Shown here: one piece after another, positions 2,644 through 44,189 of the stretch | Position numbering within the stretch: the first letter of the stretch is position 1 | How the letters are laid out: the number at the start of each line of letters is the position of its first letter | NCBI GenBank assembly: GCA_028716245.1 | Contig: JAQUQW010000001.1 | Coordinates: forward strand, 388,322-452,321 | Reading direction: 5' to 3' | Length of the DNA stretch: 64,000 nt | From: Candidatus Omnitrophota bacterium | Lineage (GTDB): Bacteria > Omnitrophota > Gorgyraeia > Gygaellales > Profunditerraquicolaceae | Translations under genes and position numbers: made by a program | Notes under the pieces: model-generated | What the model was told of the DNA's origin: nothing | The model's database searches: none | What the model saw: only the letters and a program-made list of their open reading frames with translations

Positions 2644-3676
2644 GTTTTTAATCTCGGCGGTGCACAGTATTTACCGCCTGCTCAATTCTACTTATACTGT
2701 TAATGATTTGATCTGCCGCATGGGCCGCTTGTTTTGCCAATTTTTTAACGCCCAATATTGCCAGGTTATCCTATTAGATTCTAATAAGAAATATTCTATT
2801 GTTAAATGCACAATTGTCGATAATAAGAAATGCGATGTCCTTAAAAAGACCAGGGTCAGCGGCAGGGTCGAAGAAAAAATCCTTAAGCGCGCATCCGTAG
2901 TCAGGGAGAGCAACCTTTTGGGTATCCCGCTTATCTGCGAAGACCTGATCGGGCTGATTATTATAAAACGCTCCAAAACCAGCCAGCCGTTTGACATATT
3001 CGATCAAGAGATGCTGATGACCATGGCCGAACAGGCGGTTGTCGGGATCAAGAATCTGCAGCTTTATGAAGAGCAGCAAAGAATAGTTTTTGGCAGTATC
3101 AAATCGTTAGTTACGCTTTTGGATACCCGGGTTTCCAGGGAATACACGCATTCGCCGCATTTTAGCAAGTTGGTTTGTTCCCTGGGCTGCGAAATTCATT
3201 TGAATGAAAAACAGTTGGAAAGCCTTAAATATGCCAGCCTTTTGCACGATGCCGGAAAAGCGGGCATACCAGCTGAAATTTTAACCAAGACCACCAAACT
3301 TACAGCTGAAGAATATGATATTATTAAAAAACATCCGGTTAAGGGAGCGCAGATTTTAAGGCCTTTACAGGTTTTACGCCCGGTTATTCCGATTATTATG
3401 TATCATCATGAAAAATATAACGGAACAGGTTATCCGTCGCGCCTCAAAGGAAACCAGATTCCGCTTGGGGCCCGCATTATGGCGGTAGCCGATGCTTTTG
3501 AAGCCATGGTTTACGGACGGCCTTACCGGCAAAGAATGAACATCCAAGCGGCGATAAGGGAAATAAAGAAAAAGAGCGGAACGCAATTTGACCCTAAAAT
3601 CGTTGATGCTTTTTTGAAGGTAATCAAAAAGTTTAACAAAAGAATCTACTTGAAACAGGATAACCCTAAGTTATAA
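2603..3676 (+). CDS. GAF-like sensor fused to an HD-GYP phosphodiesterase (c-di-GMP hydrolase family)
   Basis: HD motif LLHDAGK and the HHEKYNGTGYP HD-GYP signature; the N-terminal 150 aa resemble a GAF fold; start overlaps the dgt end. Confidence 0.7.
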   Translation: MNIKNYSTPTKKYRFLISAVHSIYRLLNSTYTVNDLICRMGRLFCQFFNAQYCQVILLDSNKKYSIVKCTIVDNKKCDVLKKTRVSGRVEEKILKRASVVRESNLLGIPLICEDLIGLIIIKRSKTSQPFDIFDQEMLMTMAEQAVVGIKNLQLYEEQQRIVFGSIKSLVTLLDTRVSREYTHSPHFSKLVCSLGCEIHLNEKQLESLKYASLLHDAGKAGIPAEILTKTTKLTAEEYDIIKKHPVKGAQILRPLQVLRPVIPIIMYHHEKYNGTGYPSRLKGNQIPLGARIMAVADAFEAMVYGRPYRQRMNIQAAIREIKKKSGTQFDPKIVDAFLKVIKKFNKRIYLKQDNPKL

Positions 3677-3685
3677 TATTAGGTT

Positions 3686-4129
3686 ATGGCAGAAAAACAG
3701 GATTACTCGCAATCCGAACTTTTTACCCAGTCTTTAGATAACGGGCATTATAAGCCGCATATCCCAAAGAACCCTTTTTTTTTACGTATCCGAGGGTATG
3801 AAAAAGCTATGCTTTTGATAATGGGGCTGGTTTTAGTAAGCATTATTTCTTTTTCCATGGGAGTAGAAAACGGGAAAAGGGCGGCTTTTGCTAAAAACAG
3901 CGGGCAGGATCAAAACGGTTACACGATTCAGGTAGCATCTTTTAAAAACAAAGAACTTGCTTTGCGCTACGCCCAGTCATTAAAAAGTGACGGGTTGGCT
4001 CCGATGGTTTTTGCTAAAGGAAATTACATTATTTTGTGCGTAGGCAAATTTTCTAATCAAGAGAACGCGCAACCTTTACTCATTCAGCTGCAGAGGACCT
4101 ACGCTGGTTGCCGCATAAGGAGGTTATAA
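3686..4129 (+). CDS. SPOR-domain (peptidoglycan-binding) membrane protein
   Basis: Single TM, then C-terminal SPOR-like segment (YTIQVASFKNKELALRYAQSLK...ILCVGKF). Confidence 0.6.
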   Translation: MAEKQDYSQSELFTQSLDNGHYKPHIPKNPFFLRIRGYEKAMLLIMGLVLVSIISFSMGVENGKRAAFAKNSGQDQNGYTIQVASFKNKELALRYAQSLKSDGLAPMVFAKGNYIILCVGKFSNQENAQPLLIQLQRTYAGCRIRRL

Positions 4130-4132
4130 AAC

Positions 4133-4435
4133 ATGTCAATACATCCGTCGTTAACTATTTCGGAAAAGGACAAAAAGGTCCGCTCAGTATTATCGCGCAC
4201 CGAGCGCATAAGACAGATGCAGGAAAAGAGCAAATGGAAACAAGGGGATTCAGTCTACGGCTTACCGAAACTTAAAACCCTGAGGATTAAAATTAAAAAG
4301 GAGAAGGTCGAGAAAGCTGAGACTGCAGCAACTCCCGCAGCCGGAGGAGCAGCGCCGGCGGCAGGTGGCGGAACAAAAGAAGCTTCTAAGGCCGCTGCCC
4401 CTAAGGCCGCTGCTAAAGGACAGGAGAAAAAATGA
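4133..4435 (+). CDS. small basic protein with Ala/Pro/Gly-rich C-terminus, hypothetical
   Basis: 100-aa ORF with RBS; low complexity tail AAGGAAPAAGGG. Confidence 0.4.
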   Translation: MSIHPSLTISEKDKKVRSVLSRTERIRQMQEKSKWKQGDSVYGLPKLKTLRIKIKKEKVEKAETAATPAAGGAAPAAGGGTKEASKAAAPKAAAKGQEKK

Positions 4436-5202
4436 GGATAGCCAAGCTAATATCCACTTTCCTGATGGTAAGTTTGATTTTCTGCGCGCCTGTTTTTGCA
4501 GCTGCCTTTAGCGGGCAAATCAATGCGGACAATATAAACGCGCGGGTAGACGCGACAGTAGGTTCGGCTGTGATTTGCAGCCTTCCCAAAGGCCAATTGG
4601 TTGAAGTCGTCTCAGAAGCTTATGATTGGTACAAGATCCGCCTGCCGAAAGAAGCGCCATCATATGTAAAAAAAGATCTGGTCGAATGTATCAATCCCGA
4701 TCCTGTAACCAGCCCGGGAAAATGCCTTACTGCCAAGGTAATTAAAGACCGGATAAATATCCGGCTGGGGCCCAGTGAATCCACCTGGATCCTGGGGAAA
4801 GCGGATAAACTGACCGTAGTTAATATTTTGGCTCAAGAAAGCGGCTGGTATAAAATCCAGCCGATTTATCAAAGCTATGGCTGGGTAAATAAAAAATTTA
4901 TCAGCAAAGAAATAACGCTGCCTAAAAAGCAAAAAGCTGCGGAATTATCTGCCAAAGATATTCCATCCCATGGGGATCTTCTGGTTGTCGAAGGCACGGT
5001 TACTCCATATGGGGTAATTTTATGGCGCAAGGCAACGCATAAATTGGTTACTTCCGATAACAAGATTTATTTCCTAAAGGGTAACCGTAAAAGCTTAGAC
5101 AGCCTTAATTATCATAAGGTTAAAGTTACCGGAAAACTGATTAGCCCGGCCGCAAGCAAATACCCGATTATCCAGATCGACATTATCGAGGCATTAAGTT
5201 GA
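4432..5202 (+). CDS. secreted protein with tandem bacterial SH3-like domains
   Basis: Signal peptide; two repeats of the WYKI...GWV pattern typical of SH3b. Confidence 0.5.
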   Translation: MRIAKLISTFLMVSLIFCAPVFAAAFSGQINADNINARVDATVGSAVICSLPKGQLVEVVSEAYDWYKIRLPKEAPSYVKKDLVECINPDPVTSPGKCLTAKVIKDRINIRLGPSESTWILGKADKLTVVNILAQESGWYKIQPIYQSYGWVNKKFISKEITLPKKQKAAELSAKDIPSHGDLLVVEGTVTPYGVILWRKATHKLVTSDNKIYFLKGNRKSLDSLNYHKVKVTGKLISPAASKYPIIQIDIIEALS

Positions 5203-5828
5203 GTTTTTTAAGCCTGATTATCTCTTTTATCATATCCTTCGCGCTTTTGTTAATCGCGATGACTGTGCATGAATTCGCCCACGGTCTGGTTGCCTATAAG
5301 CGCGGGGATTCTACGGCCAGGTTAAGCGGACGGCTGACCCTGAATCCGCTGGCCCATATCGATCCGTTCTGGACGCTTCTTTTGCCGCTTATACTTTTCT
5401 TATCCACAGCCGGGCGTTTTGTTTTTGGCGCGGCCAAACCTGTTCCCATAAATTACTGGGCGCTGAAGAATCCCAAGAAAGACATTATTTGGATTGGTTT
5501 AAGCGGCCCGCTGGCTAACCTTATTTTAGCCTGGATTATTGCCGGCGTATTAAAATTTATCCCGCTCTCCGGTATCTTAGCCTACCTGCTGTTCCATTTG
5601 CTCACCATTAATGTCATTTTGGCAATATTCAACCTTATACCGATTCCTCCTCTTGACGGTTCGCGCGTTTTAATGGGCCTGTTACCGCCCGATCTTTCAG
5701 AGCAATACGCCAATTTAGAGCGTTATGGCTTTATTATTCTTTTTGCGCTTATCTGGCTGGGCATCTTTGACCGCATACTCTGGCCGCTGGTGGGACTGGT
5801 GATCAGAATGATGGGAGCGGGTTCTTAA
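5199..5828 (+). CDS. site-2 protease family (M50) integral membrane metalloprotease
   Basis: HEFAHG zinc motif in the first TM and the LDG motif (NLIPIPPLDGSRV); multi-TM. Confidence 0.65.
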   Translation: MSFLSLIISFIISFALLLIAMTVHEFAHGLVAYKRGDSTARLSGRLTLNPLAHIDPFWTLLLPLILFLSTAGRFVFGAAKPVPINYWALKNPKKDIIWIGLSGPLANLILAWIIAGVLKFIPLSGILAYLLFHLLTINVILAIFNLIPIPPLDGSRVLMGLLPPDLSEQYANLERYGFIILFALIWLGIFDRILWPLVGLVIRMMGAGS

Positions 5829-5829
5829 T

Positions 5830-6915
5830 ATGCCGAAAGTAAAAGTTAATTTAGGTAAACGGTCTTACGCGATAATTATCGGATGCGGCGTCCTCAATCA
5901 GCTTGGCGAAAATTTAGGTAAATTAAATCTCGGCACAGACGCCTTTATTATTACCAATAATTTCTTAAAAGATAAATACGGGGCAAAGTTATCCTGCGTT
6001 TTATCAAACGCCGGGTTTAATTGGCGTTTTAAGATTGTCGCGGATAGCGAGAAAAGCAAATCCATCCAAACAGCAAGCTCGGTAATTAAAGATCTAGCTA
6101 AATTCGACCGGAAGAAAAAAGTTTTTATTATAGCCTTCGGCGGGGGAGTAGTTGGGGACCTAGCCGGTTTTGTGGCTTCGGTTTATAAGCGGGGAACCAG
6201 TTACGTTCAGGTACCGACGACCCTGCTGGCTCAGGTAGATTCAGCTATCGGCGGAAAAACAGCGGTTGACCTGGATTCAGGCAAAAATTTAGTCGGCGCC
6301 TTTTATCAGCCAAGGCTTGTTTTTAGCGACATTGATTTTTTAAAAAGTTTAAATAAAGAACAGCTTTGTTCGGGAATGGCGGAGGTCATCAAATACGCGG
6401 TAATCAAAGATAAGGGGCTTTTTAATTTCCTGGAGAACAAACATAAGGAAGTAATTGCGGGCAAGGCATCCGCTCTTGAAACGATAATTTGTTCCTGCAG
6501 TAAGATCAAGGCAAAGATAACCAGCAGCGATGAAAAAGAAACTTTGGGGATAAGGACTATTCTTAACTTTGGGCATACGATAGGGCATGCAATCGAAGCC
6601 GCAGGCGGCTATCGCGGCTGTAATCACGGCCAGGCAGTTGGGTTAGGCATGATTGTTGCTGTCGATCTAAGCAGCAAACTTAACCTGATTGACGCCAAAT
6701 CCGCCGCCCGCATTGAAAATTTAATTAAACTTTACGGCTTGCCTGCCAAAATTAAAGGCCTGTCCACGGATAAGATTATTCAAGCCCATTATCACGATAA
6801 GAAATTTTCGGGTAAAGAAAATAAATTTGTGCTTATCCGCGGAATTGGCATACCTAAAATTATCCGTAATATTAGACTGGATTTAATAAAAGAGGCAATC
6901 GCAAGGATAGTTTAG
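5830..6915 (+). CDS. aroB: 3-dehydroquinate synthase
   Basis: GGGVVGDLAGF nucleotide-binding motif and HAIE metal-binding histidines; 361 aa. Confidence 0.85.
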   Translation: MPKVKVNLGKRSYAIIIGCGVLNQLGENLGKLNLGTDAFIITNNFLKDKYGAKLSCVLSNAGFNWRFKIVADSEKSKSIQTASSVIKDLAKFDRKKKVFIIAFGGGVVGDLAGFVASVYKRGTSYVQVPTTLLAQVDSAIGGKTAVDLDSGKNLVGAFYQPRLVFSDIDFLKSLNKEQLCSGMAEVIKYAVIKDKGLFNFLENKHKEVIAGKASALETIICSCSKIKAKITSSDEKETLGIRTILNFGHTIGHAIEAAGGYRGCNHGQAVGLGMIVAVDLSSKLNLIDAKSAARIENLIKLYGLPAKIKGLSTDKIIQAHYHDKKFSGKENKFVLIRGIGIPKIIRNIRLDLIKEAIARIV

Positions 6916-33971: not shown

Positions 33972-35303
33972 ATGGGTAAACGCTTGATTTTAGTATTAGC
34001 GCTTGCTTTACTAGTCGGCCTGACATTTAGCGCCGCCTACGCAGAAGTGCAGAATGTAAAGGTATCCGGAGACATTTTAGTAAGTGGCGTAGACAGAAAT
34101 CACTTTAACTTAATTAATTCAAATCCGGGAGACAAAAGTGTTCTAAAGCAGAACTTTTTAATGTCTCAGGTCAGATTACGTATTGACGCAGATCTTACAG
34201 ATAACGTCATCGCGACAGTAAGACTGATCAATGAAAGAATCTGGAACGGACAGATGGATTCCGGAGCTGCTAGTACCAATAACCAAAATATTGATGTCGA
34301 CCTCGCTTATGCTACTATGAAAGAATTTTTGTATTCGCCTTTAACTCTAACTGTCGGCCGCCAGGAAATTAAATTCGGCAACGGTTTGGTTATTGGTAAT
34401 TCAAAAATTGCCGGTAGTTCATCAAGCATTCCTAATGACTTAACGGAACAAAAAGCTTTTGATGCAATCCGCGCAACCTTAAACTATGATCCATTAATTG
34501 TGGACTTAGTTTATGCTCAAGTCAAACAAAGTAATTCAGTTGACAGAAACACTGTCAGCCTAACTGGTATGAATGCCGCATATGCTTTAAACAAGAAGAC
34601 TGATGTTTCTGTCTATTATTGGCTTAAGGATAATAACAACAATGCTGCTATCGGTACCAGCAGAGATGATAAACTCTCTACAGTTGGCGCTTTAATTTCC
34701 AACTCTTCGATTGAGAATTTAGCCGCTTCTTTAGAAGCTGCCTATCAGTTTGGCAAAAATACTGAAATGGCTAGCGCAAAAAGGCATGATGCCTGGGCTT
34801 TACAAGCAATGGCAGATTATACTTTTGCCAAAGTTAAGACAACTCCTAAGATCGGTGCTTCTTATACTTTTCTTTCCGGATCTAACACCGGTGGCACCAG
34901 AAATCAGGGTTGGGATCCTATGTTCTACGATCAAAAACTCAACAGTATAGTTTACACGCTGCTACCTTTTTCAAATATGAATGCTTATAATTTAAGAGGC
35001 AGCATGAAACCGGTTGATGATGTTACAGTATCCTTAGTTTATGGATACTATGATGTAGCACAAAAGAATAGCGCGGCATTTACTGCTCCATTCACCTATG
35101 ATAATGGAATTGCATACCTAGGATCTACAGCATATACCGGAAAAAGACATCTGGGTAGTGCGCTGGACGGGTCTATAACTTATGATTACACTGAAGATGT
35201 CCAGTTTGGTTTAACCGGCGGTTATTTTACAGCAGGTGACGCGCTCACCACTAAAACAGCCAATGCAACCCAGTTAATCGGATCAATGAAAGTAATATTC
35301 TAA
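33972..35303 (+). CDS. outer-membrane beta-barrel protein (porin-like)
   Basis: Signal peptide (AAYA-EV), alternating amphipathic beta-strand pattern, C-terminal aromatic residue (..MKVIF); 443 aa. Confidence 0.5.
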   Translation: MGKRLILVLALALLVGLTFSAAYAEVQNVKVSGDILVSGVDRNHFNLINSNPGDKSVLKQNFLMSQVRLRIDADLTDNVIATVRLINERIWNGQMDSGAASTNNQNIDVDLAYATMKEFLYSPLTLTVGRQEIKFGNGLVIGNSKIAGSSSSIPNDLTEQKAFDAIRATLNYDPLIVDLVYAQVKQSNSVDRNTVSLTGMNAAYALNKKTDVSVYYWLKDNNNNAAIGTSRDDKLSTVGALISNSSIENLAASLEAAYQFGKNTEMASAKRHDAWALQAMADYTFAKVKTTPKIGASYTFLSGSNTGGTRNQGWDPMFYDQKLNSIVYTLLPFSNMNAYNLRGSMKPVDDVTVSLVYGYYDVAQKNSAAFTAPFTYDNGIAYLGSTAYTGKRHLGSALDGSITYDYTEDVQFGLTGGYFTAGDALTTKTANATQLIGSMKVIF

Positions 35304-35326
35304 TACAACTTATGTAGAAACACTTG

Positions 35327-35361
35327 AAACCCTCGGGGGAGAAATCCTCCGAGGGTTTTTT
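35327..35361 (+). terminator. rho-independent terminator after the porin gene
   Basis: AAACCCTCGG-loop-CCGAGGGTTT followed by TTTTTT. Confidence 0.75.
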
Positions 35362-35376
35362 CTTGATACTTAAATC

Positions 35377-36924
35377 ATGTTAAATCTTGCCTTTATCTTT
35401 CATATGCACCAGCCGTATTATAAGGACCTCTTAACGCAAGAGAGTGATCTTCCCTGGGTCAGGTTACACGGCGTTAAGGATTACCTGGATATGGTACAGA
35501 TCCTGGAAAAATTCCCTAAGATCAAACAAACCTTTAATGTTGTGCCGTCTTTATTCGAGCAGGTCGAAGATTATAATAATGGAAAAGTAAGCGATAAATA
35601 TCTTGAGTTAAGTAAAAAACCGGCAGCGGAATTATCCAAACATGATCAGGAATTTGTCCTGCAGAATTTCTTTTCCATAAACAACGAAAAAGTGATCTCC
35701 ACTTTTCCGCGTTATTACCAACTCCACTTCAAAAAACACCATCGCCTGGAATTCTTGACCCAGGATTACCTGGACTTGCAGCTTTTGTTTAATCTGGCCT
35801 GGATCGATCCGTCTTTCCGGCAGAATATCCCTGAACTTAAAAAAATAGTCTTAAAGGAAAGATTCTTTAATGAACAGGATAAGGCAACTGTCCTGGATAA
35901 ACAGTTAAGCATCTTAAAAGAAATTATCCCTGCCTACTGCCTTTTTAAACAGAATAACCAGATTGAGATCAGCGTTACTCCTTATTATCATCCCATCTTG
36001 CCGCTTCTTTGCTCGACGAACACCGCCAAAGAAGCAAACCATAAAACAATCTTGCCCAAAGAAGAGTTTCGCTATCCGCAAGACGCAAAAGATCAAATTG
36101 ACAGCGCAGTAAAATATTATCGGGAGAGGTTTGGCTGTCCGCCGCACGGTATGTGGCCGTCGGAAGAAGGAGTAAGCGAAGAGATCCTGCCGTTTATTAT
36201 TAAATCCGGGATAAAGTGGGTAGTTACCGACGAGGCAATTTTATTTAAATCTTTAAAGATAAAAAAACGTGACACTAAGCTCCTTTATCAGCCTCACCTG
36301 TTAAAAAGGAAGGAGGGGGAGCTGAATATTGTTTTTCGCGACCGCAACCTCTCGGATTTAATCGGTTTCTCTTATCACAAGATGAAAGAAACTGAGGCGG
36401 TAAATAACTTTATGGCGCATTTGGAAAATATCCACAAAACCTTCAAAAACAAGGATATCCTGGTAACCGTAGCCATGGACGGAGAAAACGCCTGGGAATA
36501 TTTCCGCAATGACGGCCATGATTTCCTGGAATTATTTTATAAACATCTATCCGAAGCGCCTTTTGTAAAAACTACCACCGTCAGCGAATATTTAAAAAAT
36601 AACCCGCCGGAAAAATCAGAAATAAAACACTTAAGCGCGGGCAGCTGGATCTATGGAGAATTCGGCAAATGGATCGGCAGCCCCTATAAAGTAAAAGCCT
36701 GGGAGTGGCTGACGCAGGCGCGCAAAGCAATAAAAGAAACTAAAGAACCAGGCGAGCTGGCCTGGAAGCAAATGTATATCTTAGAGGGCAGTGATTGGTT
36801 CTGGTGGGCAGGAGAAGACCCGGATGGCTCATTTGACCGGCTGTTCAGGCTGCACCTGACTAACTTTTATAAGCTAATTGACAAAGAGCCGCCGGCATAT
36901 CTCTCCAAGCCCTTAACCCCTTGA
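35377..36924 (+). CDS. glycoside hydrolase family 57 (alpha-glucan branching/amylase type)
   Basis: GH57 N-terminal signature FHMHQPYY and a typical 515-aa length. Confidence 0.85.
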   Translation: MLNLAFIFHMHQPYYKDLLTQESDLPWVRLHGVKDYLDMVQILEKFPKIKQTFNVVPSLFEQVEDYNNGKVSDKYLELSKKPAAELSKHDQEFVLQNFFSINNEKVISTFPRYYQLHFKKHHRLEFLTQDYLDLQLLFNLAWIDPSFRQNIPELKKIVLKERFFNEQDKATVLDKQLSILKEIIPAYCLFKQNNQIEISVTPYYHPILPLLCSTNTAKEANHKTILPKEEFRYPQDAKDQIDSAVKYYRERFGCPPHGMWPSEEGVSEEILPFIIKSGIKWVVTDEAILFKSLKIKKRDTKLLYQPHLLKRKEGELNIVFRDRNLSDLIGFSYHKMKETEAVNNFMAHLENIHKTFKNKDILVTVAMDGENAWEYFRNDGHDFLELFYKHLSEAPFVKTTTVSEYLKNNPPEKSEIKHLSAGSWIYGEFGKWIGSPYKVKAWEWLTQARKAIKETKEPGELAWKQMYILEGSDWFWWAGEDPDGSFDRLFRLHLTNFYKLIDKEPPAYLSKPLTP

Positions 36925-36959
36925 CATAGATAGGGTTTTGTGTTATAAGATATATTCAA

Positions 36960-37532
36960 ATGAATAAGAAAGAAATCTACGAACATCTGGCGAATATTTA
37001 TCTGGATGCCTCTTCTAAATCATCAAAGAAAAAAAATAAATTCAGCCCTTATCCTAAAGCAATATGGGGCATCGTAATTTTGGGATTGGTAACCGCCTTA
37101 GGTTTAGGCAGCGCGGTTACTTATTTCCATATTAATAACCGCAGTCCCAAAGGGCAAATCGCCTTATTTTTATATCAAGATTCGGCTAAAATAAATTTTA
37201 ACTTTGATCCCGCCAAAAGAGAAACTTTTTCCATCAACCTTAAACAATTAAATTTATCCAAATATAAAGCCTTGGCCTTTAGCGTAAGAAAAACTAACTC
37301 TAAAGATATAATTTCATTAAGGGTGGAATTTATTAACCGCTTTAATGAAAAATCCGAAGTTTACGTGAAAGATATTTCCGGTAAATGGACGCAGGAAAAC
37401 TTGGATTTTAGCCGTTTTGCTAAAATGAACGACTGGACCCAGATGAAGGCATTGGCTTTTAGCATTGAAGAATGGAACGCCCGCGAAAAATCAGGCATAG
37501 TTTATCTTGATAATATAAAGGTAATCAAATAA
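36960..37532 (+). CDS. membrane-anchored protein with internally repeated beta-rich ectodomain (possible carbohydrate-binding module)
   Basis: Basic N-terminus, one TM, two repeats (KYKALAFSVRK / QMKALAFSIEE); ends in a CBM-like ..IVYLDNIKVIK. Confidence 0.35.
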   Translation: MNKKEIYEHLANIYLDASSKSSKKKNKFSPYPKAIWGIVILGLVTALGLGSAVTYFHINNRSPKGQIALFLYQDSAKINFNFDPAKRETFSINLKQLNLSKYKALAFSVRKTNSKDIISLRVEFINRFNEKSEVYVKDISGKWTQENLDFSRFAKMNDWTQMKALAFSIEEWNAREKSGIVYLDNIKVIK

Positions 37533-37547
37533 TAAGAAGGAGGATGA

Positions 37548-38642
37548 ATGCGCATAATTTCAATTGCTAATCAAAAAGGCGGCTGCGGCAAAACAACTAC
37601 ATCCATAAATTTAGCTGCCTCACTGGCATCCAATAGCCGCCGCGTCCTGCTTATTGATCTTGACCCGCAAGCCCATGCCACCAGCGGCTTAAACATCAAA
37701 GCGGAATTAAGTATCTACAATGTCCTTTCTAAAATCACGCATAAAAAAGCAAGGATTGACGAAATTATCCAGAACATCGGAGTTAATTTTGATATCGCCC
37801 CATCTTCGATTATTTTAAGCACGCTGGAACAGGAGTTAAGCGGTGAAATCGGAAGAGAGAGCCGCCTTTGGGATATCTTAAAAAGTTTTCAGAACAACTA
37901 CGATTACATTTTAATCGATTGCCCTCCAAACCTGGGGATCCTGACCATTAACGCCTTGCGGGCGGCAAACGAAATTATTATTCCGGTTGAAGCCAGCAGG
38001 TTCTCCTTAGAAGGGGTAAGCCAGTTAACCAGCATTATTAACCTGGTCAAAGAAAGGTTAAACCATAGCGTGGATTTCCGGATCCTGGTAACCAACTTTG
38101 ATTCCCGGCTGCAGCATTCGTTTAAAATGCTTGAGAAAATCAAGACTGACTACAAAAACAGAATGTTCTCTAACATTATCCACGTGAATGTAAAATTAAA
38201 GGAAGCCCAAAACGAAGGCCTGCATATACATGTTTACGATAAATACTGCCGGGGGGCAAAAGATTATTTCTCGCTTTCCCGTGAAATTATCACCCAGGAA
38301 AATACGCCTCCTGCGCCTGTTCCGCCAACAGAAAAAAACCTGGAAAAACGCATGCAAGATATCCTTAAGGAGAACCTGCCAAAATTAAATGAAACTGTTC
38401 TTTCGGTTAAAGCTCCTGATGCAAAAGAAGTTTATTTGGCGGGAGAATTCAACAACTGGAAGCTTGATGAACACAGCCGCATGGAGCAGAATAACGGCTG
38501 TTGGACCAAACACCTGGCCTTAAATAAGGGTAAATACCGTTACCGTTTCGTAATCGATGGAAATTGGGCCGAAGACCCGGAGAACCCATCAAGGCAAATG
38601 AATGCTTACGGCACCATGGATTCGTTGATTGAAATTAATTAG
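37548..38642 (+). CDS. ParA/MinD-family ATPase fused to a C-terminal CBM48 (AMPK-beta glycogen-binding) domain
   Basis: Deviant Walker A KGGCGKTTT and ParA body (about 250 aa), a Pro-rich linker, then CBM48 signature VYLAGEFNNWK...GKYRYRFVIDGNWAEDPENP. Confidence 0.75.
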   Translation: MRIISIANQKGGCGKTTTSINLAASLASNSRRVLLIDLDPQAHATSGLNIKAELSIYNVLSKITHKKARIDEIIQNIGVNFDIAPSSIILSTLEQELSGEIGRESRLWDILKSFQNNYDYILIDCPPNLGILTINALRAANEIIIPVEASRFSLEGVSQLTSIINLVKERLNHSVDFRILVTNFDSRLQHSFKMLEKIKTDYKNRMFSNIIHVNVKLKEAQNEGLHIHVYDKYCRGAKDYFSLSREIITQENTPPAPVPPTEKNLEKRMQDILKENLPKLNETVLSVKAPDAKEVYLAGEFNNWKLDEHSRMEQNNGCWTKHLALNKGKYRYRFVIDGNWAEDPENPSRQMNAYGTMDSLIEIN

Positions 38643-38666: not shown

Positions 38667-38993
38667 ATGTCTGCTCTGGAAAATGAACAAGAGATACGTG
38701 ATGGAAAATTTTTTGCCATAATTTCGTACGTTTCTTTTCTGTGCATCATTACTTTAATCTTAAAAAAAGACAATAAATTCGCCCTTTATCATGCTAAGCA
38801 GGGGCTGGTGCTTTTTGTAATGGAAGTTGTGGCATTTATACTTTCGATTATACCTTTATTAGGCTGGTTAATCGGAGTTCTTGGGTATGCGTTATTCCTG
38901 CTGGTTTCTCTATGGGGAATTATGCAGGCTTTTCTGGGTATTTACTGCCGGATCCCGGTTATAACTAAGATATCTGAGAAAGTCGTCATCTAA
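38667..38993 (+). CDS. small integral membrane protein (DUF4870-like)
   Basis: 108 aa with 2-3 TM helices; strong RBS AGGAGAG. Confidence 0.45.
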   Translation: MSALENEQEIRDGKFFAIISYVSFLCIITLILKKDNKFALYHAKQGLVLFVMEVVAFILSIIPLLGWLIGVLGYALFLLVSLWGIMQAFLGIYCRIPVITKISEKVVI

Positions 38994-39004
38994 GCAAGGA
39001 GGGC

Positions 39005-39415
39005 TTGTCAATGGCTTTAAAAAAGTTGAGCACCAATAAAAAAATAGCGAAATCCTCGCGCTTAGCGCGAGGAAAAAAGAAAATTACCAAAAAAGCTGTT
39101 AAAAAAACCAAAAAGAAACTGATCAAGAAGATGCCTGTAGCCAAGAAAAAACCGGCTGCTAAGAAAAAAGAAGGCAACCTTATCGGCACAGTCACGCATT
39201 ATTTTCCCCATGTGCAAGCCGCGGTAATCAAATTAAAAGGGCCTCTGGCAATGGGAGATACGGTAAAAATAAAAGGGCACACCACCGACCTTACCCAGGC
39301 GGTAACTTCAATGCAAATCGACCGGGTAGTGATTTCAAATGCCAAAAAAGGGGATGAAATCGGGCTGCAGGTAAATTCCCGGGTCAGGCAAGGCGATAAA
39401 ACTTATAAATTATAA
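39005..39415 (+). CDS. lysine-rich histone H1-like N-terminal tail fused to an EF-Tu domain-2-like beta-barrel
   Basis: N-terminal 60 aa are KKAVKKTKKKLIKK-type repeats; C-terminus shows a GTV...GD.VKIKG....GDEIGLQV pattern like translation-factor domain II. Confidence 0.4.
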   Translation: MSMALKKLSTNKKIAKSSRLARGKKKITKKAVKKTKKKLIKKMPVAKKKPAAKKKEGNLIGTVTHYFPHVQAAVIKLKGPLAMGDTVKIKGHTTDLTQAVTSMQIDRVVISNAKKGDEIGLQVNSRVRQGDKTYKL

Positions 39416-39517
39416 CTTCTAAGGGCCTGTTAAGCACAAAGCAGGCCCTAAAAAACGCCTATTTATAAGTAGGTACTCATAATAAATACGGCGTTAAACT
39501 TGGGTAAATCTAGGTAA

Positions 39518-39844
39518 ATGCGCTTGCGAGGAAGGCCGAAAAAATACAGGATAGTCAAAGTTGACCCTAAAATCAGCTATTTTAGCCCTAGAGGCCGGCC
39601 GGGAAGGCCTGATGAAGTCCAGATAAAAATGGATGAATTTGAGGCCTTAAGGCTGGCTGATTACCAAGGATTAGGCCAAAAAGAATCAGCCAAGTCTATG
39701 CGCATATCCCAGCAAACCTTTAGCCGGATATTAAAGAAGGCGCGCAAGCAAGTAGCTAAGGGAATTACTACCGGATCAACCATAAGAATCCAGGGTGGCC
39801 AATACGTGTTGCTTCCCGGGAGCAGAAATGAGAAAATTAGCTGA
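39518..39844 (+). CDS. DUF134/UPF0251 family predicted DNA-binding protein
   Basis: Characteristic N-terminus RGRPKK...V...P....F.P and C-terminal HTH (ESAKSMRISQQTFSRILKKAR). Confidence 0.7.
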   Translation: MRLRGRPKKYRIVKVDPKISYFSPRGRPGRPDEVQIKMDEFEALRLADYQGLGQKESAKSMRISQQTFSRILKKARKQVAKGITTGSTIRIQGGQYVLLPGSRNEKIS

Positions 39845-40670
39845 CTTAACTAAGGAAAAGTTAATCGATTTATATCTAAATGAAAGAAAATCCTTGGGTG
39901 ATATAGCTAAAATCTATAGCGTTTCCCGGACAGCAATATATAAAAAACTTAACACTCATGGTATAAAACAACGCTCTAAATCAGAGGCAAGAATTGAAGC
40001 GCAGAAACAAAATAAGGTTCCACAGCAATTTTATGATATAGATGAGGATTTTTTCAGTACTTGGTCACCTGAAATGGCGTACGTTTTTGGCTTAATTCTT
40101 ACTGATGGATGTATTTCTGATAACGGAGTGATATCGCTTTGTATAAACGACAGAGAATTACTAGAAAAGGTTAAAAAAGCATTGCAATCCGAACATAAAA
40201 TAACACTGTCTAAGCATCAAGAAGGCTTGCATTATTTTCATTTTGCCAGGGAAAAACTTGTGGCGGACTTAGCAAAACTTGGTGTTTTACCCAGAAAAAG
40301 TCTTACGGTCAAATTCCCAAAGATTCCAGAAAGCTTCCTAGTTGATTTCATAAGAGGAGTTTTTGATGGCGATGGAAGTGTTTTCTTTGATAAACGCCGA
40401 ATAAACTGTCCATTAAGGTCTAAATTTGTTAGTGGCTCCTGTGATTTTATAGCCGGTTTACAACAAAAGTTAGAATCTTTGAATATGCCCGAAAGAACAA
40501 TCTATAAACAAAAAACCAAAAATGGATGGAGTTATATGTTTATATATGATCATAAAGATAGCTTAAAGTTATTTGAAATTTTATATAAAAATATCCAAAA
40601 TAAGCTATTTTTAGAACGCAAATATAGGCGGTTTTTAGAAGGTATAAAAGGCATTAAGGCAAAAACATAG
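39828..40670 (+). CDS. free-standing LAGLIDADG homing endonuclease with N-terminal HTH
   Basis: Two LAGLIDADG motifs (FGLILTDGCI and FIRGVFDGDGSV) after an HTH (SLGDIAKIYSVSRTAIYKKL); start moved to ATG 39828 (RBS GGGAGCAG); visibly AT-rich versus neighbours. Confidence 0.7.
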   Translation: MRKLADLTKEKLIDLYLNERKSLGDIAKIYSVSRTAIYKKLNTHGIKQRSKSEARIEAQKQNKVPQQFYDIDEDFFSTWSPEMAYVFGLILTDGCISDNGVISLCINDRELLEKVKKALQSEHKITLSKHQEGLHYFHFAREKLVADLAKLGVLPRKSLTVKFPKIPESFLVDFIRGVFDGDGSVFFDKRRINCPLRSKFVSGSCDFIAGLQQKLESLNMPERTIYKQKTKNGWSYMFIYDHKDSLKLFEILYKNIQNKLFLERKYRRFLEGIKGIKAKT

Positions 40671-40693
40671 GGAAATAAGCAAGGAGGTTTTTT

Positions 40694-40990
40694 ATGAATA
40701 CCCAAATAGAATTAGAATATTTAAAACAACTAACTCAAAAATACGGTAGCCGCTATATAAAGAGTTATTTTGGTTTTACTATGAGAGATTTTGCAAGAAG
40801 AATGGGCATTGCAGATAATACTTTTAGCCAAATATTAAAAGGCGTACGTAAAATGCAGGAGAAATATGAACAAGCATTCTTACAGGCTTTTAAAGATTTG
40901 CAGGTAGAGGAAAAATCAAAGGGTTTCAAAGAAACCCCAAATCAGGTACAAATGAAACAGCTCTATCAAAAAAAGAACAGCTTATTCTGA
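40694..40990 (+). CDS. small HTH-containing hypothetical protein
   Basis: 98 aa; RBS AAGGAGG; HTH-like FTMRDFARRMGIADNTFSQILKG; AT-rich. Confidence 0.4.
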   Translation: MNTQIELEYLKQLTQKYGSRYIKSYFGFTMRDFARRMGIADNTFSQILKGVRKMQEKYEQAFLQAFKDLQVEEKSKGFKETPNQVQMKQLYQKKNSLF

Positions 40991-41666
40991 ATACAGGACA
41001 TCTTTGGGAACTGGATATAATATATCTTATGTTAACTTGTCTATCTTGGCTAAGTGTACTTAACCCTATATGAGACAATAAGTTATTAAGAGATGTTTTT
41101 AACCTGTGGAAAAGGTAATTCTTGTTTACTTAAACTTACCGCTTTATTTTATTCCTAACAATTCAGGCAAAATTTATGAATCATCTTCCCTGGATTTTTT
41201 GCTTTTAATTAAAGATTTTATTTATGAACCTGGCCGGGTTAAAACAGTAATTGCGGGATAAATTGACCTCTCTCCGAAGCGGTTATTAACGCGGTCTAGA
41301 GCCTAAATAAGGCCTTCCCTGCGGATTTCTTCCTAAGTAAACTATTAAGAGATGCCCATAGCAAGTGACCCCGATTGCCCGATTTCCGGGCCGTTTAGCC
41401 AAAGATACACCACATTGCGCTGACTAAATTTTGCTGCCTGAGCCTTGTAGCCACCATTTCAGACAACAGCCTGATCCAAGCTGGATAACCTGGGGGTTTA
41501 TTTGAGCTCTAGGTAAAGTATATGGATGGCTGATTGACTTGGGTTTTCACTGGACTTACCGGAACTTTCCTCAAACTTACCACAGTTACCATAACTCTCA
41601 TTAAAAAAATGCAGTAATGTTAAAGTTTGCACAGATTCTCTCGTGGAATTATCATCTGATCCATAT

Positions 41667-42270
41667 TTAATATTTCCTGATTACGGTGATGAGCTTGCCG
41701 ATTACCTCAAACTCTTCAAAGATTGGCGCGTAATTTGGATTAGCCGCTTCTAAATGAAACTTACCGGCTTTACTGCGCAGCCTTTTTAAAGTCACCTCAT
41801 TATTGTCTAAAAGTGCGGCAACTATATCATTATTGTCGGCATGGGGGCGTTTCTTGATAATGGCAATATCGCTATCTAGTATCCCGGCATCAATCATGCT
41901 GTCGCCTTTAACCTTTAAAGCGAAAACATCATCAAAACCCAGGCGGCCAAGAAATAAATCATCAGCATCAACATAACCCTGAATTTCTTCATAAGCTAAA
42001 TCCGGCTTACCGGCCATGATCGTACCGATTATGGGAATTTTAAAAGACGCGCGCTGCGTTAACCCGATTGCCCGTGATTTATTATTCATCCGCCTCACCA
42101 AACCTTTCTGTATTAGGGCCTTTAAATAGTCCCTGACTGTCCCGGTAGATTTAAACCCCAGCTCCTCTCCTATTTCTCTAATTGTAGGAGGGAGCCTCTC
42201 CCCTATCCGTTTGCGGATAAAATTAAGCACCTTTTCCTGCTTTGGCGTCAAATACGGCTTCTTTTCCATG
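41667..42270 (-). CDS. lexA: LexA repressor (SOS regulator, S24 peptidase)
   Basis: N-terminal wHTH (LTPKQEKVLNFI...GEELG), Ala-Gly cleavage site (IMAGKPD), Ser/Lys dyad (GDSM...KRL); start set to the internal Met MEKKPYLT rather than the track start 42290. Confidence 0.85.
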
Positions 42271-42282
42271 GCTATAGATATA

Positions 42283-42298
42283 CCACACATTTGTGTGG
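42283..42298. promoter_or_regulatory. candidate LexA operator: perfect palindrome CCACACA-TT-TGTGTGG
   Basis: Seen in sequence 13 nt upstream of the lexA start; autoregulated lexA genes typically carry their own operator here. Confidence 0.45.
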
Positions 42299-42333
42299 TT
42301 TGTCAAGAAAAATTAAAGGGGCGCCTCTAAAAT

Positions 42334-42381
42334 AAAGGGGACGGTTCTATTCCTTGGTTAAAAAATAGAACCGTCCCCTTT
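42334..42381 (-). terminator. REP-like hairpin copy C (AAAGGGGACGGTTCTAT-loop-ATAGAACCGTCCCCTTT)
   Basis: 17-bp stem with A/T-rich flanks, between the zinc-ribbon sORF and lexA on the minus strand. Confidence 0.55.
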
Positions 42382-42389
42382 ATTCTTAT

Positions 42390-42554
42390 TTAACGGCTTT
42401 GCCCCTTGCTCTTTTGATAACACTCTCTGCATAATATCGGTTTGCCGCCCTCTCTGGGTTTAAAAGGCACTTCGCATTCTTTTTTGCACTCTGCGCAAAT
42501 TGCCTTGTGCATTTCCCGGGGCCCGCCAAATCCACCACCTTGTTGATACGCCAT
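42390..42554 (-). CDS. 54-aa zinc-ribbon protein (CxxC-x17-CxxC)
   Basis: Below the 60-aa track threshold; translated by hand: MAYQQGGGFGGPREMHKAICAECKKECEVPFKPREGGKPILCRECYQKSKGQSR; perfect SD AAAGGAGGAAAC before the ATG; hairpin follows. Confidence 0.55.
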   Translation of the reverse strand: MAYQQGGGFGGPREMHKAICAECKKECEVPFKPREGGKPILCRECYQKSKGQSR

Positions 42555-42620
42555 GTTTCCTCCTTTTAGTTACTTAAATAATTATATAACTTTCTAAAAT
42601 AATCTCAAGTATTTTTAGTA

Positions 42621-42653
42621 AGGGGCTGGATAATCAAATCCAGCCCCTTTTTT
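42621..42653 (+). terminator. hairpin AGGGGCTGGAT-aatcaa-ATCCAGCCCCT plus TTTTT
   Basis: 11-bp stem with T-tract on the plus strand and A-tract on the minus; sits after the msrBA/sORF unit (minus) and could act in both directions. Confidence 0.5.
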
Positions 42654-42670
42654 AACCTATACAAATAAAC

Positions 42671-42727
42671 TTATTTCTTTTTCTTCTTTGCCTTTTTCTT
42701 CGGTTTCTTGCAGCTTCCGCAGCTCAT
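42671..42727 (-). CDS. 18-aa lysine-rich sORF (MSCGSCKKPKKKAKKKKK), possible micropeptide or leader
   Basis: Consensus SD AAAGGAGGTG 5 nt upstream, placed directly after the msrBA TGA stop; hand-translated. Confidence 0.25.
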   Translation of the reverse strand: MSCGSCKKPKKKAKKKKK

Positions 42728-42739
42728 ACCCACCTCCTT

Positions 42740-43639
42740 TCATCTTTTAGGTATATGGCAAGCCGGCTTTAAACCGTGTTTTATATAATAATCCTGATGA
42801 TAGCCTTCAGCTTTATAGAAATCTCCGGCTGCGATAATTTCGGTGGTAATCGGCTTTTTGTATCTGCCGGATTTCTCCAGCTTCTCCTTGGAAGCCAAGG
42901 CCGATTTTTTCTGCTCAGGCGTGTAATAAAATATCACTGAACGATACTGGCTGCCGATATCCGGGCCCTGTTGGTTTGGCGTGGTAGGATCATGGATATC
43001 CCAGAAAATATCCAGCAGCTTCTCATAAGCAACAACCTGAGGGTTAAACTCTAGCTCTACCGTTTCCGCATGCCCGGTCTTATCCGTACAGACATCTGCA
43101 TAACTGGGATTTTTCAGTTTTCCACCAGCGTAACCAGCTGTAGTTTTAACCACGCCTTTTATTCCTGTAAATGCTGCCTGGACGCCCCAGAAACATCCGG
43201 CGGCAAAAGCAGCTTTTTCGAGTTCTTCTTTTTTCGGCAGATTAATTTTGGCAAATTTAAGCGCTGCCGCATTAATACAATAACGTTTGCCGGTTGGCGG
43301 CGGGCCATCGTCAAAAACATGGCCCAGATGCGCGTCGCAACGGGCGCAAAGCACTTCCACCCTGGATGCCCCCAAAGTATTATCGATTCGTGTTTTGATA
43401 TTTAATTCAGAAACCGGTTCCCAGAAACTCGGCCAGCCGGTGCCGGATTCAAATTTGGTAGTAACTAAAAATAAATCCGTGCCGCAACAAATGCATTTAT
43501 ATACACCCTGCTCATTCTTCTTGGGCAGAACGCAGTGGCCGCTAAAAGGTACTTCCGTTACTTTAAGCCTGGTAACCCTGTATTGTTCAGGAGTAAGGAT
43601 CTTCTTCCATTGGGCATCGGTTTTATAGACCCGCTCCAC
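42740..43639 (-). CDS. msrAB: bifunctional peptide methionine sulfoxide reductase MsrB-MsrA
   Basis: N-terminal MsrB (two CxxC pairs, RYCINAAAL) and C-terminal MsrA (GCFWG); the track start is a GTG. Confidence 0.85.
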
Positions 43640-43766
43640 TTCCTCAACTTGGCCGTTGCAAGATTAAAGATTTTAACCTTTTCTGGTTCTTTTGAAGAAA
43701 CTTCCATCTGCCCTCCAAGTAACAATATAAATCCAACTAACATCACAATTATACTGCTATACTTAT

Positions 43767-44189
43767 TCATCTTTTGACTTTACGCGGCGCCACCATTTTT
43801 GCATCCTTTAAAACATCATACATAAAACTGATCATGGATATTTCCGTTTTGGGTATTTCTTCATTTATTTTATTTACGCCATAATCCAGAGCCCTGACAG
43901 TACGGAAACTATCGGTTACGGTTATAACCACCGCTTCGTTTCTTTCTAATTCCTTGATCCCTTCAAGAACAAACATAAGTTTCTGGTATTCGGTCAGCTG
44001 ATTCCAGTTTTTATTAGTAAGTTTATAGCCATCCCATTTTGCCTGGGCCTTAGGAAAAAAACAAATATGCGGGGTCTGGTTATACCGGTAAATATTGCCT
44101 GAATTTTTAATACCCGGACCGGATGTTGAAGCGCAGCCGTTTAACAGGAATACTGCGGTTAAAACAGAAATCACCGATCCTATTTTCAT
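43767..44189 (-). CDS. lipoprotein, hypothetical
   Basis: Lipobox LLNGCAS; 140 aa. Confidence 0.45.
   Translation of the reverse strand: MKIGSVISVLTAVFLLNGCASTSGPGIKNSGNIYRYNQTPHICFFPKAQAKWDGYKLTNKNWNQLTEYQKLMFVLEGIKELERNEAVVITVTDSFRTVRALDYGVNKINEEIPKTEISMISFMYDVLKDAKMVAPRKVKR

Follow-up and report, generated by a model that had tools for sequence, protein, structure and literature searches.

A ParA-type ATPase fused to a CBM48 glycogen-binding module, with a conserved partner gene: a candidate glycogen-positioning system in Omnitrophota and other bacterial phyla

Introduction

ParA/MinD ATPases are the general positioning machinery of bacteria, and their known cargos are DNA, carboxysomes, chemoreceptor arrays, flagella, and the divisome. 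To our knowledge, an adaptor protein marks the cargo in every ParA/MinD case studied. Here, we analyzed a gene that joins a ParA-type ATPase to a glycogen-binding carbohydrate-binding module (CBM) of the CBM48 type, referred to as ParA-CBM. The gene lies in a stretch of 64,000 nucleotides from Candidatus Omnitrophota bacterium (assembly GCA_028716245.1, contig JAQUQW010000001.1, positions 388,322 to 452,321, forward strand), and this whole stretch is called the window. A preliminary description of the window had proposed that the ATPase positions polyglucan granules through its built-in module. The analysis resulted in a conserved gene pair, consisting of ParA-CBM and an adjacent partner protein. 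The fusion system most likely organizes the cell's glycogen stores in space, for which we see an even chance; the positioning of polyglucan granules itself is what we infer.

The chromosomal ParA/Soj proteins (type Ib; 8ray, TtSoj 1wcv/2bek, and HpSoj 6iub) share with the fusion the ATPase fold and size, the deviant Walker A with its signature lysine, the Walker A' and B aspartates, and most of the DNA patch. In most phyla, the partner peptide of the fusion also has the LGRG determinant of ParB N-termini. Unlike chromosomal ParA/Soj, the fusion loci lack a ParB or parS partner, and the fusion protein has a C13 and H43 signature as well as the linker and CBM48. McdA-McdB, PomZ-PomXY, ParC-ParP, and PpfA likewise place a ParB-less ParA-type ATPase beside a dedicated small partner and serve non-DNA cargo. 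In the McdAB-type systems, the partner binds the cargo, whereas in the fusion, the ATPase carries the presumed cargo module, and the cargo would be a polysaccharide. McdA does not have the signature lysine, which is present as K10 and invariant in the fusions; the fusion may work like McdA but does not belong to the McdA family. The concept of an orphan ParA with a partner expected to stimulate the ATPase has been reviewed (PMC9178275).

On the carbohydrate side, the fusion CBM keeps the contacts of the AMPK beta CBM (1z0n), namely, both stacking tryptophans, the Lys/Arg, the Leu/aromatic, and the Asn/Asp residues. Unlike AMPK beta, it is joined to a P-loop ATPase by a disordered linker and has no sign of the kinase-regulatory interface. 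Tethers of storage polymers are known: PhaF and PhaM tether polyhydroxybutyrate (PHB) granules to the nucleoid, and Stbd1 and Atg45 are eukaryotic glycogen tethers. They share with the fusion the logic of one module on the storage polymer and another on a cellular scaffold; however, these tethers are passive, whereas the fusion would have an ATPase cycle and an activating partner. BcsQ is likewise a ParA/MinD-fold ATPase tied to polysaccharide biology, and the Pfam BcsQ model overlaps the fusion ATPase. Unlike BcsQ, the fusion scored only 67.8 against the NCBIfam cellulose_yhjQ model (cut-off of 157.85) and is nearer to Soj, and its CBM48 points to a cytoplasmic alpha-glucan. No bcs genes were found in the window or in the loci analyzed.

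The ParA-CBM48 fusion protein

The gene and its parts are as follows (pLDDT, predicted local distance difference test).

37548..38642, + strand: ParA-CBM48 fusion gene, 364 amino acids plus stop codon, a single unbroken open reading frame (ORF); AAA_31 and AMPK1_CBM profiles, AlphaFold
37548..38300, + strand: Soj-type ParA ATPase domain, residues 1-251; closest solved chains ParA/Soj
37575-37595, + strand: deviant Walker A KGGCGKT, residues 10-16, within the ATPase domain
38301..38387, + strand: Pro-rich flexible linker, residues 252-280; pLDDT below 50 at residues 257-277
38388..38639, + strand: CBM48/AMPK-beta-type glycogen-binding module, residues 281-364; Pfam, 1z0n alignment, AlphaFold

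The preliminary description of a complete ParA ATPase with the Walker A string KGGCGKTTT (residues 10-18) was borne out. Residues 1-176 scored 193.9 bits against Pfam AAA_31 (cut-off of 27), the Pfam CbiA model reached residue 226, and the catalytic residues are invariant: K10 (the signature lysine), K15, D37, D39, and D124 were found in all of 118 diverse fusions. The same 118 fusions display a subfamily signature, comprising C13 of KGGCGKT (94%) and H43 of DPQxH (96%), where canonical Soj has Val and Asn, respectively. The closest structures to the ATPase domain were ParA 8ray (E-value 9e-56), a chromosomal-type ParA with about 50% identity, TtSoj 1wcv (1.5e-38), and HpSoj 6iub (4.9e-36); the McdA structure 6non was well behind the Soj chains (1.7e-14). 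The scores against the NCBIfam equivalogs were 108.7 for ParA_partition (cut-off of 180) and 58.7 for minD_bact (cut-off of 212.9). Judged by these profiles, the protein is a member of the ParA superfamily and not a curated equivalog, and its ATPase looks functional.

The non-specific DNA-binding patch of Soj is formed by R182, R194, R208, and R211 of TtSoj (PMC6393308). In the alignment of the fusions, the equivalent positions and one extra position read as follows.

Position 187: R in the window protein; R in 88% of the 118 fusions
Position 199: K in the window protein; basic in 56%
Position 213: V (not basic) in the window protein; variable
Position 216: K in the window protein; K/R in 79%
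Position 218 (extra): K in the window protein; K/R in 80%

By this comparison, the patch appears largely retained in the fusion ATPases.

The AlphaFold model of the protein, built from 40 diverse homologues, had a mean pLDDT of 90.4; in it, residues 1-251 form the ATPase and residues 281-364 a beta-sandwich, and the Pro-rich stretch that joins them (about 252-280) is disordered. No contact between the CBM and the ATPase was predicted, as the linker was disordered and the predicted template-modeling score (pTM) was 0.69. The length of the linker ranges from about 10 to 290 residues across the family, and no Pfam domains were found within the long linkers or in unfused relatives.

The Pro-rich linker and the CBM48 assignment of the preliminary description also stood. 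It had named failure of the C-terminal residues to score as CBM48 as grounds for rejection; instead, both profiles exceeded their Pfam cut-offs, with 52.5 bits for AMPK1_CBM on residues 291-364 (cut-off of 26.8) and 28.6 bits for CBM_48 on residues 279-340 (cut-off of 22.4). The best solved-structure match of the C-terminal 115 residues was the AMPK beta1 CBM chain 1z0n (E-value 7.8e-11), and the modeled sandwich is built from seven or eight strands (residues 281-363; pLDDT of 91-97). We take the sugar contacts of AMPK beta1 to be W100, K126, W133, L146, and N150, from the 1z0n work, and mapped them through the alignment.

W100: window W304; W in 100% of the 118 fusions
K126: window R333; K/R in 95%
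W133: window W340; W in 96%
L146: window Y354; F/Y in 68%
N150: window D358; N/D in 90%

Among proteins that carry this CBM subtype without the ATPase, the nearest are GH13 alpha-amylases and pullulanases, in which CBM48 occurs in tandem arrays; this argues for alpha-glucan specificity. Of the best 150 cluster representatives, six have no ATPase and carry CBM48 in 5 to 18 tandem copies. Very large tandem-CBM48 proteins of the same subtype (5 to 18 repeats) include P0241, P0271, and P0325; some of these giants are joined to GH13 amylase or pullulanase domains, and no catalytic domain was seen in the examined parts of P0241 (1812 residues), P0349, and P0365. Stand-alone CBM48 proteins of about 100 residues, kin to the ParA-fused CBM48 (E-value 2e-18), were also observed in two loci (L034:6337-6642, - strand; L051:8264-8551), and the one in L034 adjoins a GH57 branching enzyme gene.

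Extent of the family

The best 120 homologues in a collection of 5.8 billion proteins were 80-94% identical to the window protein over 100% of its length, and all carried both domains; the named ones are metagenome-assembled genomes (MAGs) of Omnitrophota. The contig index contained no exact entry for the window protein. From the best 150 representatives of 50%-identity clusters, 124 consist of a ParA and one C-terminal CBM, and 20 are ATPase-only, some of these being fragments. A profile of diverse members returned fusions in 120 of the 120 best matches, where every named source is a MAG and no cultivated carrier was identified. The database names are generic, such as "AAA family ATPase", "chromosome partitioning protein", and "hypothetical protein". 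In scans with the subfamily-specific patterns NQKGGCGK and DxDPQ[GA]H, species-representative genomes yielded at least 593 relatives, and metagenomes at least 589.

The fusion spans more than 12 bacterial phyla. Full-length fusions were found in Omnitrophota, Myxococcota, Thermodesulfobacteriota/Desulfobacterota, "Deltaproteobacteria", Gemmatimonadales (Gemmatimonadota), Acidobacteriota, and Nitrospirota; in the Phycisphaerae, Pirellulales, Tepidisphaerales, and Sedimentisphaerales of the Planctomycetota; and in Rokubacteria, Eisenbacteria, Krumholzibacteriia, Margulisbacteria, Auribacterota, Schekmanbacteria, Glassbacteria, and others. A frameshift or an assembly error joining two genes, the second ground for rejection named beforehand, was ruled out, as the same full-length architecture recurs in hundreds of independent assemblies from many phyla; we give an artefact a negligible probability. 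The sequence record thus describes a fusion family that is large and old, and an architecture that is real, widespread, and under selection. Limited searches of the literature, which are not proof of absence, found no report in which a glycogen-binding module is fused to a ParA or in which glycogen is positioned by one.

The partner gene in most phyla

For the gene neighborhoods, we analyzed 84 loci in a first round, 80 from an independent metagenome scan, and two with called genes, comprising 166 loci (L001 to L166). Loci with a ParA identity of at least 50% to the window protein were assigned to the Omnitrophota clade. The preliminary description had seen the cargo-recognition module as built into the ATPase. 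The idea that an adaptor would then be needless failed, because the gene of a partner protein is conserved beside the fusion.

Outside the Omnitrophota clade, a co-directional gene lies directly downstream of the fusion (position +1), with a gap of -4 to about +30 nucleotides. The N-terminal peptide of its product follows the consensus (K)LGRGL-x-(D/E)-(V/I)-S-H-x-F-L-S, abbreviated KLGRGLxDVSHxFLS. A post-hoc regular expression applied to the first 80 residues matched 19 of 1272 ORFs, all 19 at +1. A hidden Markov model (HMM) of those 19 peptides then matched 21 of 779 ORFs in the independent set, and again all 21 were at +1. Two loci with independent gene calls display this peptide, as KKLGKSIEDISYLFLS and KKSLGRGFEEISNIFLS. 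The bodies of the +1 proteins are diverse and comprise a degenerate MinD/ParA-like P-loop, an AAA-like domain, or a sequence without family match; none reached a curated cut-off in Pfam or NCBIfam.

The first ten residues of Helicobacter pylori ParB, MAKNKVLGRG, bind the ParA dimer; Leu7 and Arg9 of HpParB recur across ParB proteins, and binding is lost in the R9A variant (PMC11229316). An arginine finger is the suggested means by which the N-termini of ParB stimulate ParA (PMC9178275). As the +1 peptide carries the LGRG determinant of ParB, we read the +1 proteins as ParA partners with a ParB-type peptide and not as ParB. By analogy, they would bind and stimulate the fusion ATPase. No ParB-like ORF was detected in 164 scanned loci (phmmer with E-values up to 0.01 and an approximate BsSpo0J query, whose possible small errors should have no effect at this level), L165 and L166 had no ParB, and the ParB motif GERRxRA is absent from the 64-kb window.

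A third recurrent family, cluster C7, comprises proteins of about 190-230 residues at +1 to +3 in nine non-Omnitrophota loci (for instance, L034:5653-6219, L049:12165-12809, and L042:11088-11789, plus six other loci). C7 had no match in Pfam or NCBIfam; in L042 and L048, the C7 member itself bears the LGRG...SHxFLS peptide. C7 may be another component of the system.

The partner candidate in Omnitrophota

In the Omnitrophota clade, the gene directly upstream of ParA-CBM (position -1) encodes a membrane protein of 190 residues, TM190 (TM, transmembrane).

36960..37532, + strand: TM190, 190-residue membrane protein, candidate ParA partner at position -1 of ParA-CBM
36960-37034, + strand: N-terminal peptide of TM190, residues 1-25, predicted cytoplasmic, the most conserved segment
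37056-37136, + strand: TM helix, residues 33-59 (AlphaFold)
37191-37526, + strand: CBM-like jelly-roll beta-sandwich, residues 78-189 (AlphaFold, Foldseek)

TM190 lies directly upstream of ParA-CBM in 27 of the 27 Omnitrophota-clade loci of the first set, and in the second set, all 21 matches of the TM190 HMM were at position -1. Four remoter loci (L028-L030 and L039; ParA identity of 42-45%) have at -1 a longer protein of TM190 architecture. An iterated HMM links these longer proteins to TM190 via intermediates, and hhalign of the two gave a probability of 5%; hence, their kinship may be accepted only with caution. TM190 had no match in Pfam or NCBIfam, and its 692 sequence matches suggest that it is restricted to Omnitrophota. 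Eight MAGs labeled "uncultured Planctomycetales/Planctomycetia" (L008, L011, L012, L014, L023, L027, L028, and L030) share ParA-CBM proteins of 45-76% identity and the Omnitrophota-specific TM190 synteny; these taxonomic labels are probably imprecise.

The first 25 residues of TM190, MNKKEIYEHLANIYLDASSKSSKKK, are near-invariant, and the TM segment is variable. Over the divergent TM190 family, column conservation was 0.64-0.69 in the peptide and 0.23-0.55 elsewhere. The AlphaFold model comprises a helix (residues 3-19), the TM helix (33-59), and the sandwich (78-189, pLDDT of 72-86). A Lys-rich stretch ahead of the TM helix would place, by the positive-inside rule, the N-terminus in the cytoplasm and the sandwich in the periplasm. 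The ectodomain had been described as repeated and beta-rich; AlphaFold and Foldseek returned a single jelly-roll beta-sandwich instead. Its Foldseek matches were CBM11 (6r31, E-value 5.7e-6), CBM28, CBM30, CBM16, CBM4, and the CBM of AlgX in 7ula, with modest TM-scores of 0.36-0.48. The modeled fold is CBM-like.

Homology between the TM190 peptide and the LGRG...SHxFLS peptide was considered and rejected, as the HMM from the 19 partner peptides gave a best E-value above 9 on TM190. The two peptides are treated, on their sequences, as analogous and not homologous. Thus, the TM190 N-terminus would be a ParA-docking peptide by virtue of its invariance, position, and obligate adjacency, not of homology. 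The HpParA loop L23, which clamps the ParB peptide, corresponds to window positions 37689-37730 (ParA residues 48-61; compared with L028-L084). A deletion has removed three residues of this loop in precisely the clade whose TM190 is of the YEHLANIYL type. The deletion is consistent with a docking role of the TM190 peptide and may also reflect plain phylogeny.

GH57 and the alpha-glucan context

As previously described, and with all three ORFs at the coordinates given before, a GH57 gene and the membrane protein gene precede the fusion, in the order GH57, TM190, and ParA-CBM on the + strand.

35377..36924, + strand: GH57 alpha-glucan hydrolase, amylopullulanase-like, predicted cytoplasmic, 515 amino acids; Pfam GH57 206.7 bits

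The closest solved chains to this enzyme were those of a GH57 amylopullulanase (8zyi/9iht, E-value about 1e-84; cf. PMC12106739). It harbors the HQP motif at residues 10-12 and has no signal peptide, which argues for a cytoplasmic degradative enzyme. As it has no BE_C domain, it is not of the branching-enzyme type found in L034, L041, and L166. GH57 lies upstream (position -2) in 15 of the 23 informative Omnitrophota-clade loci, all with a ParA identity of at least 57%; in the loci without it, the AlgE-like porin directly precedes TM190. The confinement of GH57 to this subclade looks like a single insertion event, and GH57 synteny as a property of the family was ruled out, since most distant loci lack it. 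The survey of homologues proposed beforehand confirmed a widespread ParA-CBM48 architecture, whereas the expected GH57 synteny held in one Omnitrophota subclade only.

Outside the TM190 clade, alpha-glucan genes were found within 10 kb of the fusion in six of about 117 loci.

L084: Omnitrophica, 37% identity; GH77, GH57, glycogen phosphorylase, and GT4, abutting the 3' end
L034: Thermodesulfobacteriota; GH57 branching enzyme, DUF4912, and GT4/GT5-like synthase
L041: unclassified bacterium; GH57 branching enzyme and GalT-like gene
L127: metagenome contig; 1434-residue glycogen-synthase/phosphorylase fusion at -1 and starch-synthase-like GT at -4
L135: metagenome contig; GlgB as divergent neighbor
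L166: PVC group; DUF4912 and GH57 branching enzyme, 3-4 kb downstream, co-directional

If a genome of 4 Mb is assumed to have two or three alpha-glucan loci, and about 11 kb are considered around each fusion, roughly one locus would be expected by chance; six loci are thus a modest enrichment by this rough estimate, obtained with a seed set that misses GlgC and some synthases. The proposed alpha-glucan context is, therefore, supported by six independent distant loci and is absent from most others. In L127, the ORF at 2490-6794 (a crude call) combines Glycogen_syn (GT3-type), DUF3417, and alpha-glucan phosphorylase, an unusual fusion of synthesis and degradation enzymes in one polypeptide. Omnitrophota MAGs are predicted to encode glycogen synthesis (PMC8542988). 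Elsewhere, the window encodes housekeeping functions (DnaE, aminoacyl-tRNA synthetases, GuaA/GuaB, PPDK, and sigma-70), and no further glycogen genes were found within its 64 kb.

Transcription unit and other features of the window

The genes around GH57, TM190, and ParA-CBM are as follows.

33972..35303, + strand: AlgE-like (Alginate_exp) outer-membrane porin, Pfam 115.6 bits; probably outside the unit
35326..35359, + strand: terminator-like hairpin in the interval between the porin and GH57; 15-bp stem, 8 G-C pairs, T-rich tail
38667..38993, + strand: DUF4870/MamF-like (MamF-MmsF-like) protein with three TM segments, 108 amino acids; weak Pfam DUF4870 match, E-value 1.4e-3
39005..39415, + strand: Lys-rich protein of 136 amino acids with a histone-H1-like N-terminal tail and a small C-terminal beta-rich domain

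The hairpin between the porin and GH57 suggests that the porin is a separate transcription unit, and no comparable + strand hairpin was found between GH57 and the gene of the Lys-rich protein. From this arrangement, the unit likely comprises GH57, TM190, ParA-CBM, the DUF4870-like gene, and the Lys-rich protein gene, with gaps of 35, 15, 24, and 11 nucleotides, and GH57 is probably its first gene in this subclade. In 17 Omnitrophota loci, the Alginate_exp porin gene precedes TM190 or GH57; outside Omnitrophota, the porin is absent. Fifteen Omnitrophota loci have the DUF4870-like gene at +1 of ParA-CBM, and 21 Omnitrophota loci (among L001-L027) have the gene of the Lys-rich protein at +1 to +3. 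The Lys-rich protein had no match in Pfam, NCBIfam, or PDB. It could be a nucleoid-binding accessory, an idea that recalls the PHB-granule tether PhaF, or a mere syntenic neighbor, and its membership in the system is uncertain.

The cumulative GC skew peaks at about 40.5-41.5 kb of the window, where GC content is 0.33-0.36 (40-41.5 kb), and the gene orientation switches at the peak from + upstream to - downstream (positions 39000-44000). A replication terminus, or a major strand switch of another kind, about 2-3 kb downstream of ParA-CBM would fit this pattern. The low-GC region at 39795-40990 contains a LAGLIDADG_3 homing-endonuclease-like ORF (291 residues, 46.3 bits) and an ORF of 98 residues; in L001 and L002, which are syntenic, a gene for a Y-family polymerase (IMS) and a gene of 102 residues occupy its place. 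This stretch looks like a local insertion or replacement beside lexA.

Proposed mechanism and alternative explanations

We propose that ParA-CBM and its partner form an orphan system for the tethering or distribution of glycogen particles, in which the ATPase itself recognizes the cargo, and we assign this reading a probability of roughly 0.5. It builds on the identities of the domains, the conserved catalytic, DNA-patch, and sugar-contacting residues, the obligate adjacency of a partner gene, and the lack of ParB. DNA binding, glycogen binding, peptide-stimulated ATPase activity, and granule positioning are what we infer. In the proposed cycle, an ATP-bound ParA-CBM dimer would bind a surface, most likely the nucleoid via the retained basic patch, and its two linker-tethered CBM48 modules would hold particles of alpha-1,4/1,6-glucan (glycogen). 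The adjacent partner would then dock on the ATPase by its conserved N-terminal peptide, leading to ATP hydrolysis and release. By tethering and spreading the glycogen particles, the cycle would hold them in position and secure their inheritance. The partner would be a cytoplasmic protein with a ParB-like LGRG peptide in most phyla; in Omnitrophota, it would be a membrane protein with its CBM-like domain in the periplasm, and the system there probably connects glycogen and ParA to a landmark in the envelope. The broader claim, that glycogen is an actively organized cargo in many phyla, where ParA-CBM48 and its peptide partner cycle the polymer on the nucleoid while the Omnitrophota partner serves as a trans-membrane landmark, is more tentative and falls somewhat short of an even chance.

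Several points weigh against this proposal. Approximately 95% of the distant loci have no alpha-glucan genes, which makes the support from context modest. The window protein is non-basic at one of the four Soj DNA-patch positions (V213), and the TM190 N-terminal peptide has no significant similarity to the LGRG peptide. Unfused kin of the same ParA subfamily (L072 and L077) have the same partner; hence, the CBM is an add-on, and the primary cargo may be something else. A diffusion ratchet of the classical kind has the activator of the ATPase on the cargo. In the fusion system, the cargo would be held by the ATPase, and the dynamics must differ from those of that ratchet.

The unfused loci also favor a different use of the same domains, namely, a glycogen-sensing regulator, where an AMPK-like CBM48 serves as a sensor or sequestration site, and glycogen binding tunes the availability or activity of a ParA whose cargo is set by the partner; some process of positioning or division would be coupled in this way to the state of carbon storage. 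The real cargo would then be a membrane complex in Omnitrophota and a MinD-like or other protein elsewhere. The CBM is indeed closest to the regulatory module of AMPK beta, the core system of L072 and L077 works without a CBM, the partner bodies (MinD-like, AAA-like, or TM plus CBM-like) are as diverse as expected of cargo adaptors, and the majority of loci lack alpha-glucan genes. However, flexible linkers of 10-290 residues with two CBMs per dimer resemble a tether more than an allosteric module, the model predicts no CBM-ATPase contact through which the tuning could act, and glycogen enzymes recur as immediate neighbors in several lineages. This regulator is the main rival, and we consider it unlikely. 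If the ATPase were an ordinary chromosome-segregation ParA with an accessory domain and a ParB encoded elsewhere, its close identity to 8ray and the ParB-like LGRG peptide of the partner in other phyla would be accounted for; however, adjacency of parA and parB is the rule on chromosomes, and a ParB gene was adjacent in 0 of 166 loci. In addition, the subfamily has its own KGGCGKT and DPQxH signature and its own non-ParB partner, it remains below the ParA_partition cut-off, and the gene lies beside a GC-skew and orientation switch resembling a terminus and not an origin, which leaves this explanation very improbable.

The Omnitrophota loci alone could also suggest an envelope machine for polysaccharide export or uptake, in which a BcsQ-like ATPase organizes the porin and TM190, and GH57 processes the glucan. 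The recurrent Alginate_exp porin, the resemblance of the TM190 ectodomain to CBMs including that of AlgX in the AlgKX complex 7ula, and the Pfam CBP_BcsQ match on the ATPase (33.9 bits) are in line with it. This machine is nevertheless improbable: the strong terminator-like hairpin separates the porin, the fusion persists outside Omnitrophota without porin or TM190, and the window cluster contains no synthase or glycosyltransferase. Moreover, the ATPase misses the NCBIfam BcsQ cut-off and is far nearer to Soj, and CBM48 and GH57 are cytoplasmic, having no signal peptides.

Significance

The component families are already known, as is the type of system that consists of an orphan ParA and a partner. 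The built-in carbohydrate-binding cargo module, the KLGRGLxDVSHxFLS partner family, and the membrane-anchored partner variant are new; the partner family, defined by that N-terminal peptide, was previously unnamed. If glycogen positioning by ParA-CBM is true, this would be the first ParA system with direct binding of the cargo by its ATPase, and also the first to serve a carbohydrate, and a polysaccharide storage particle would join the list of ParA cargos. The ParA cycle would be wired differently, with the cargo on the ATPase and the activator elsewhere, and glycogen storage would be under spatial control in many uncultivated lineages.

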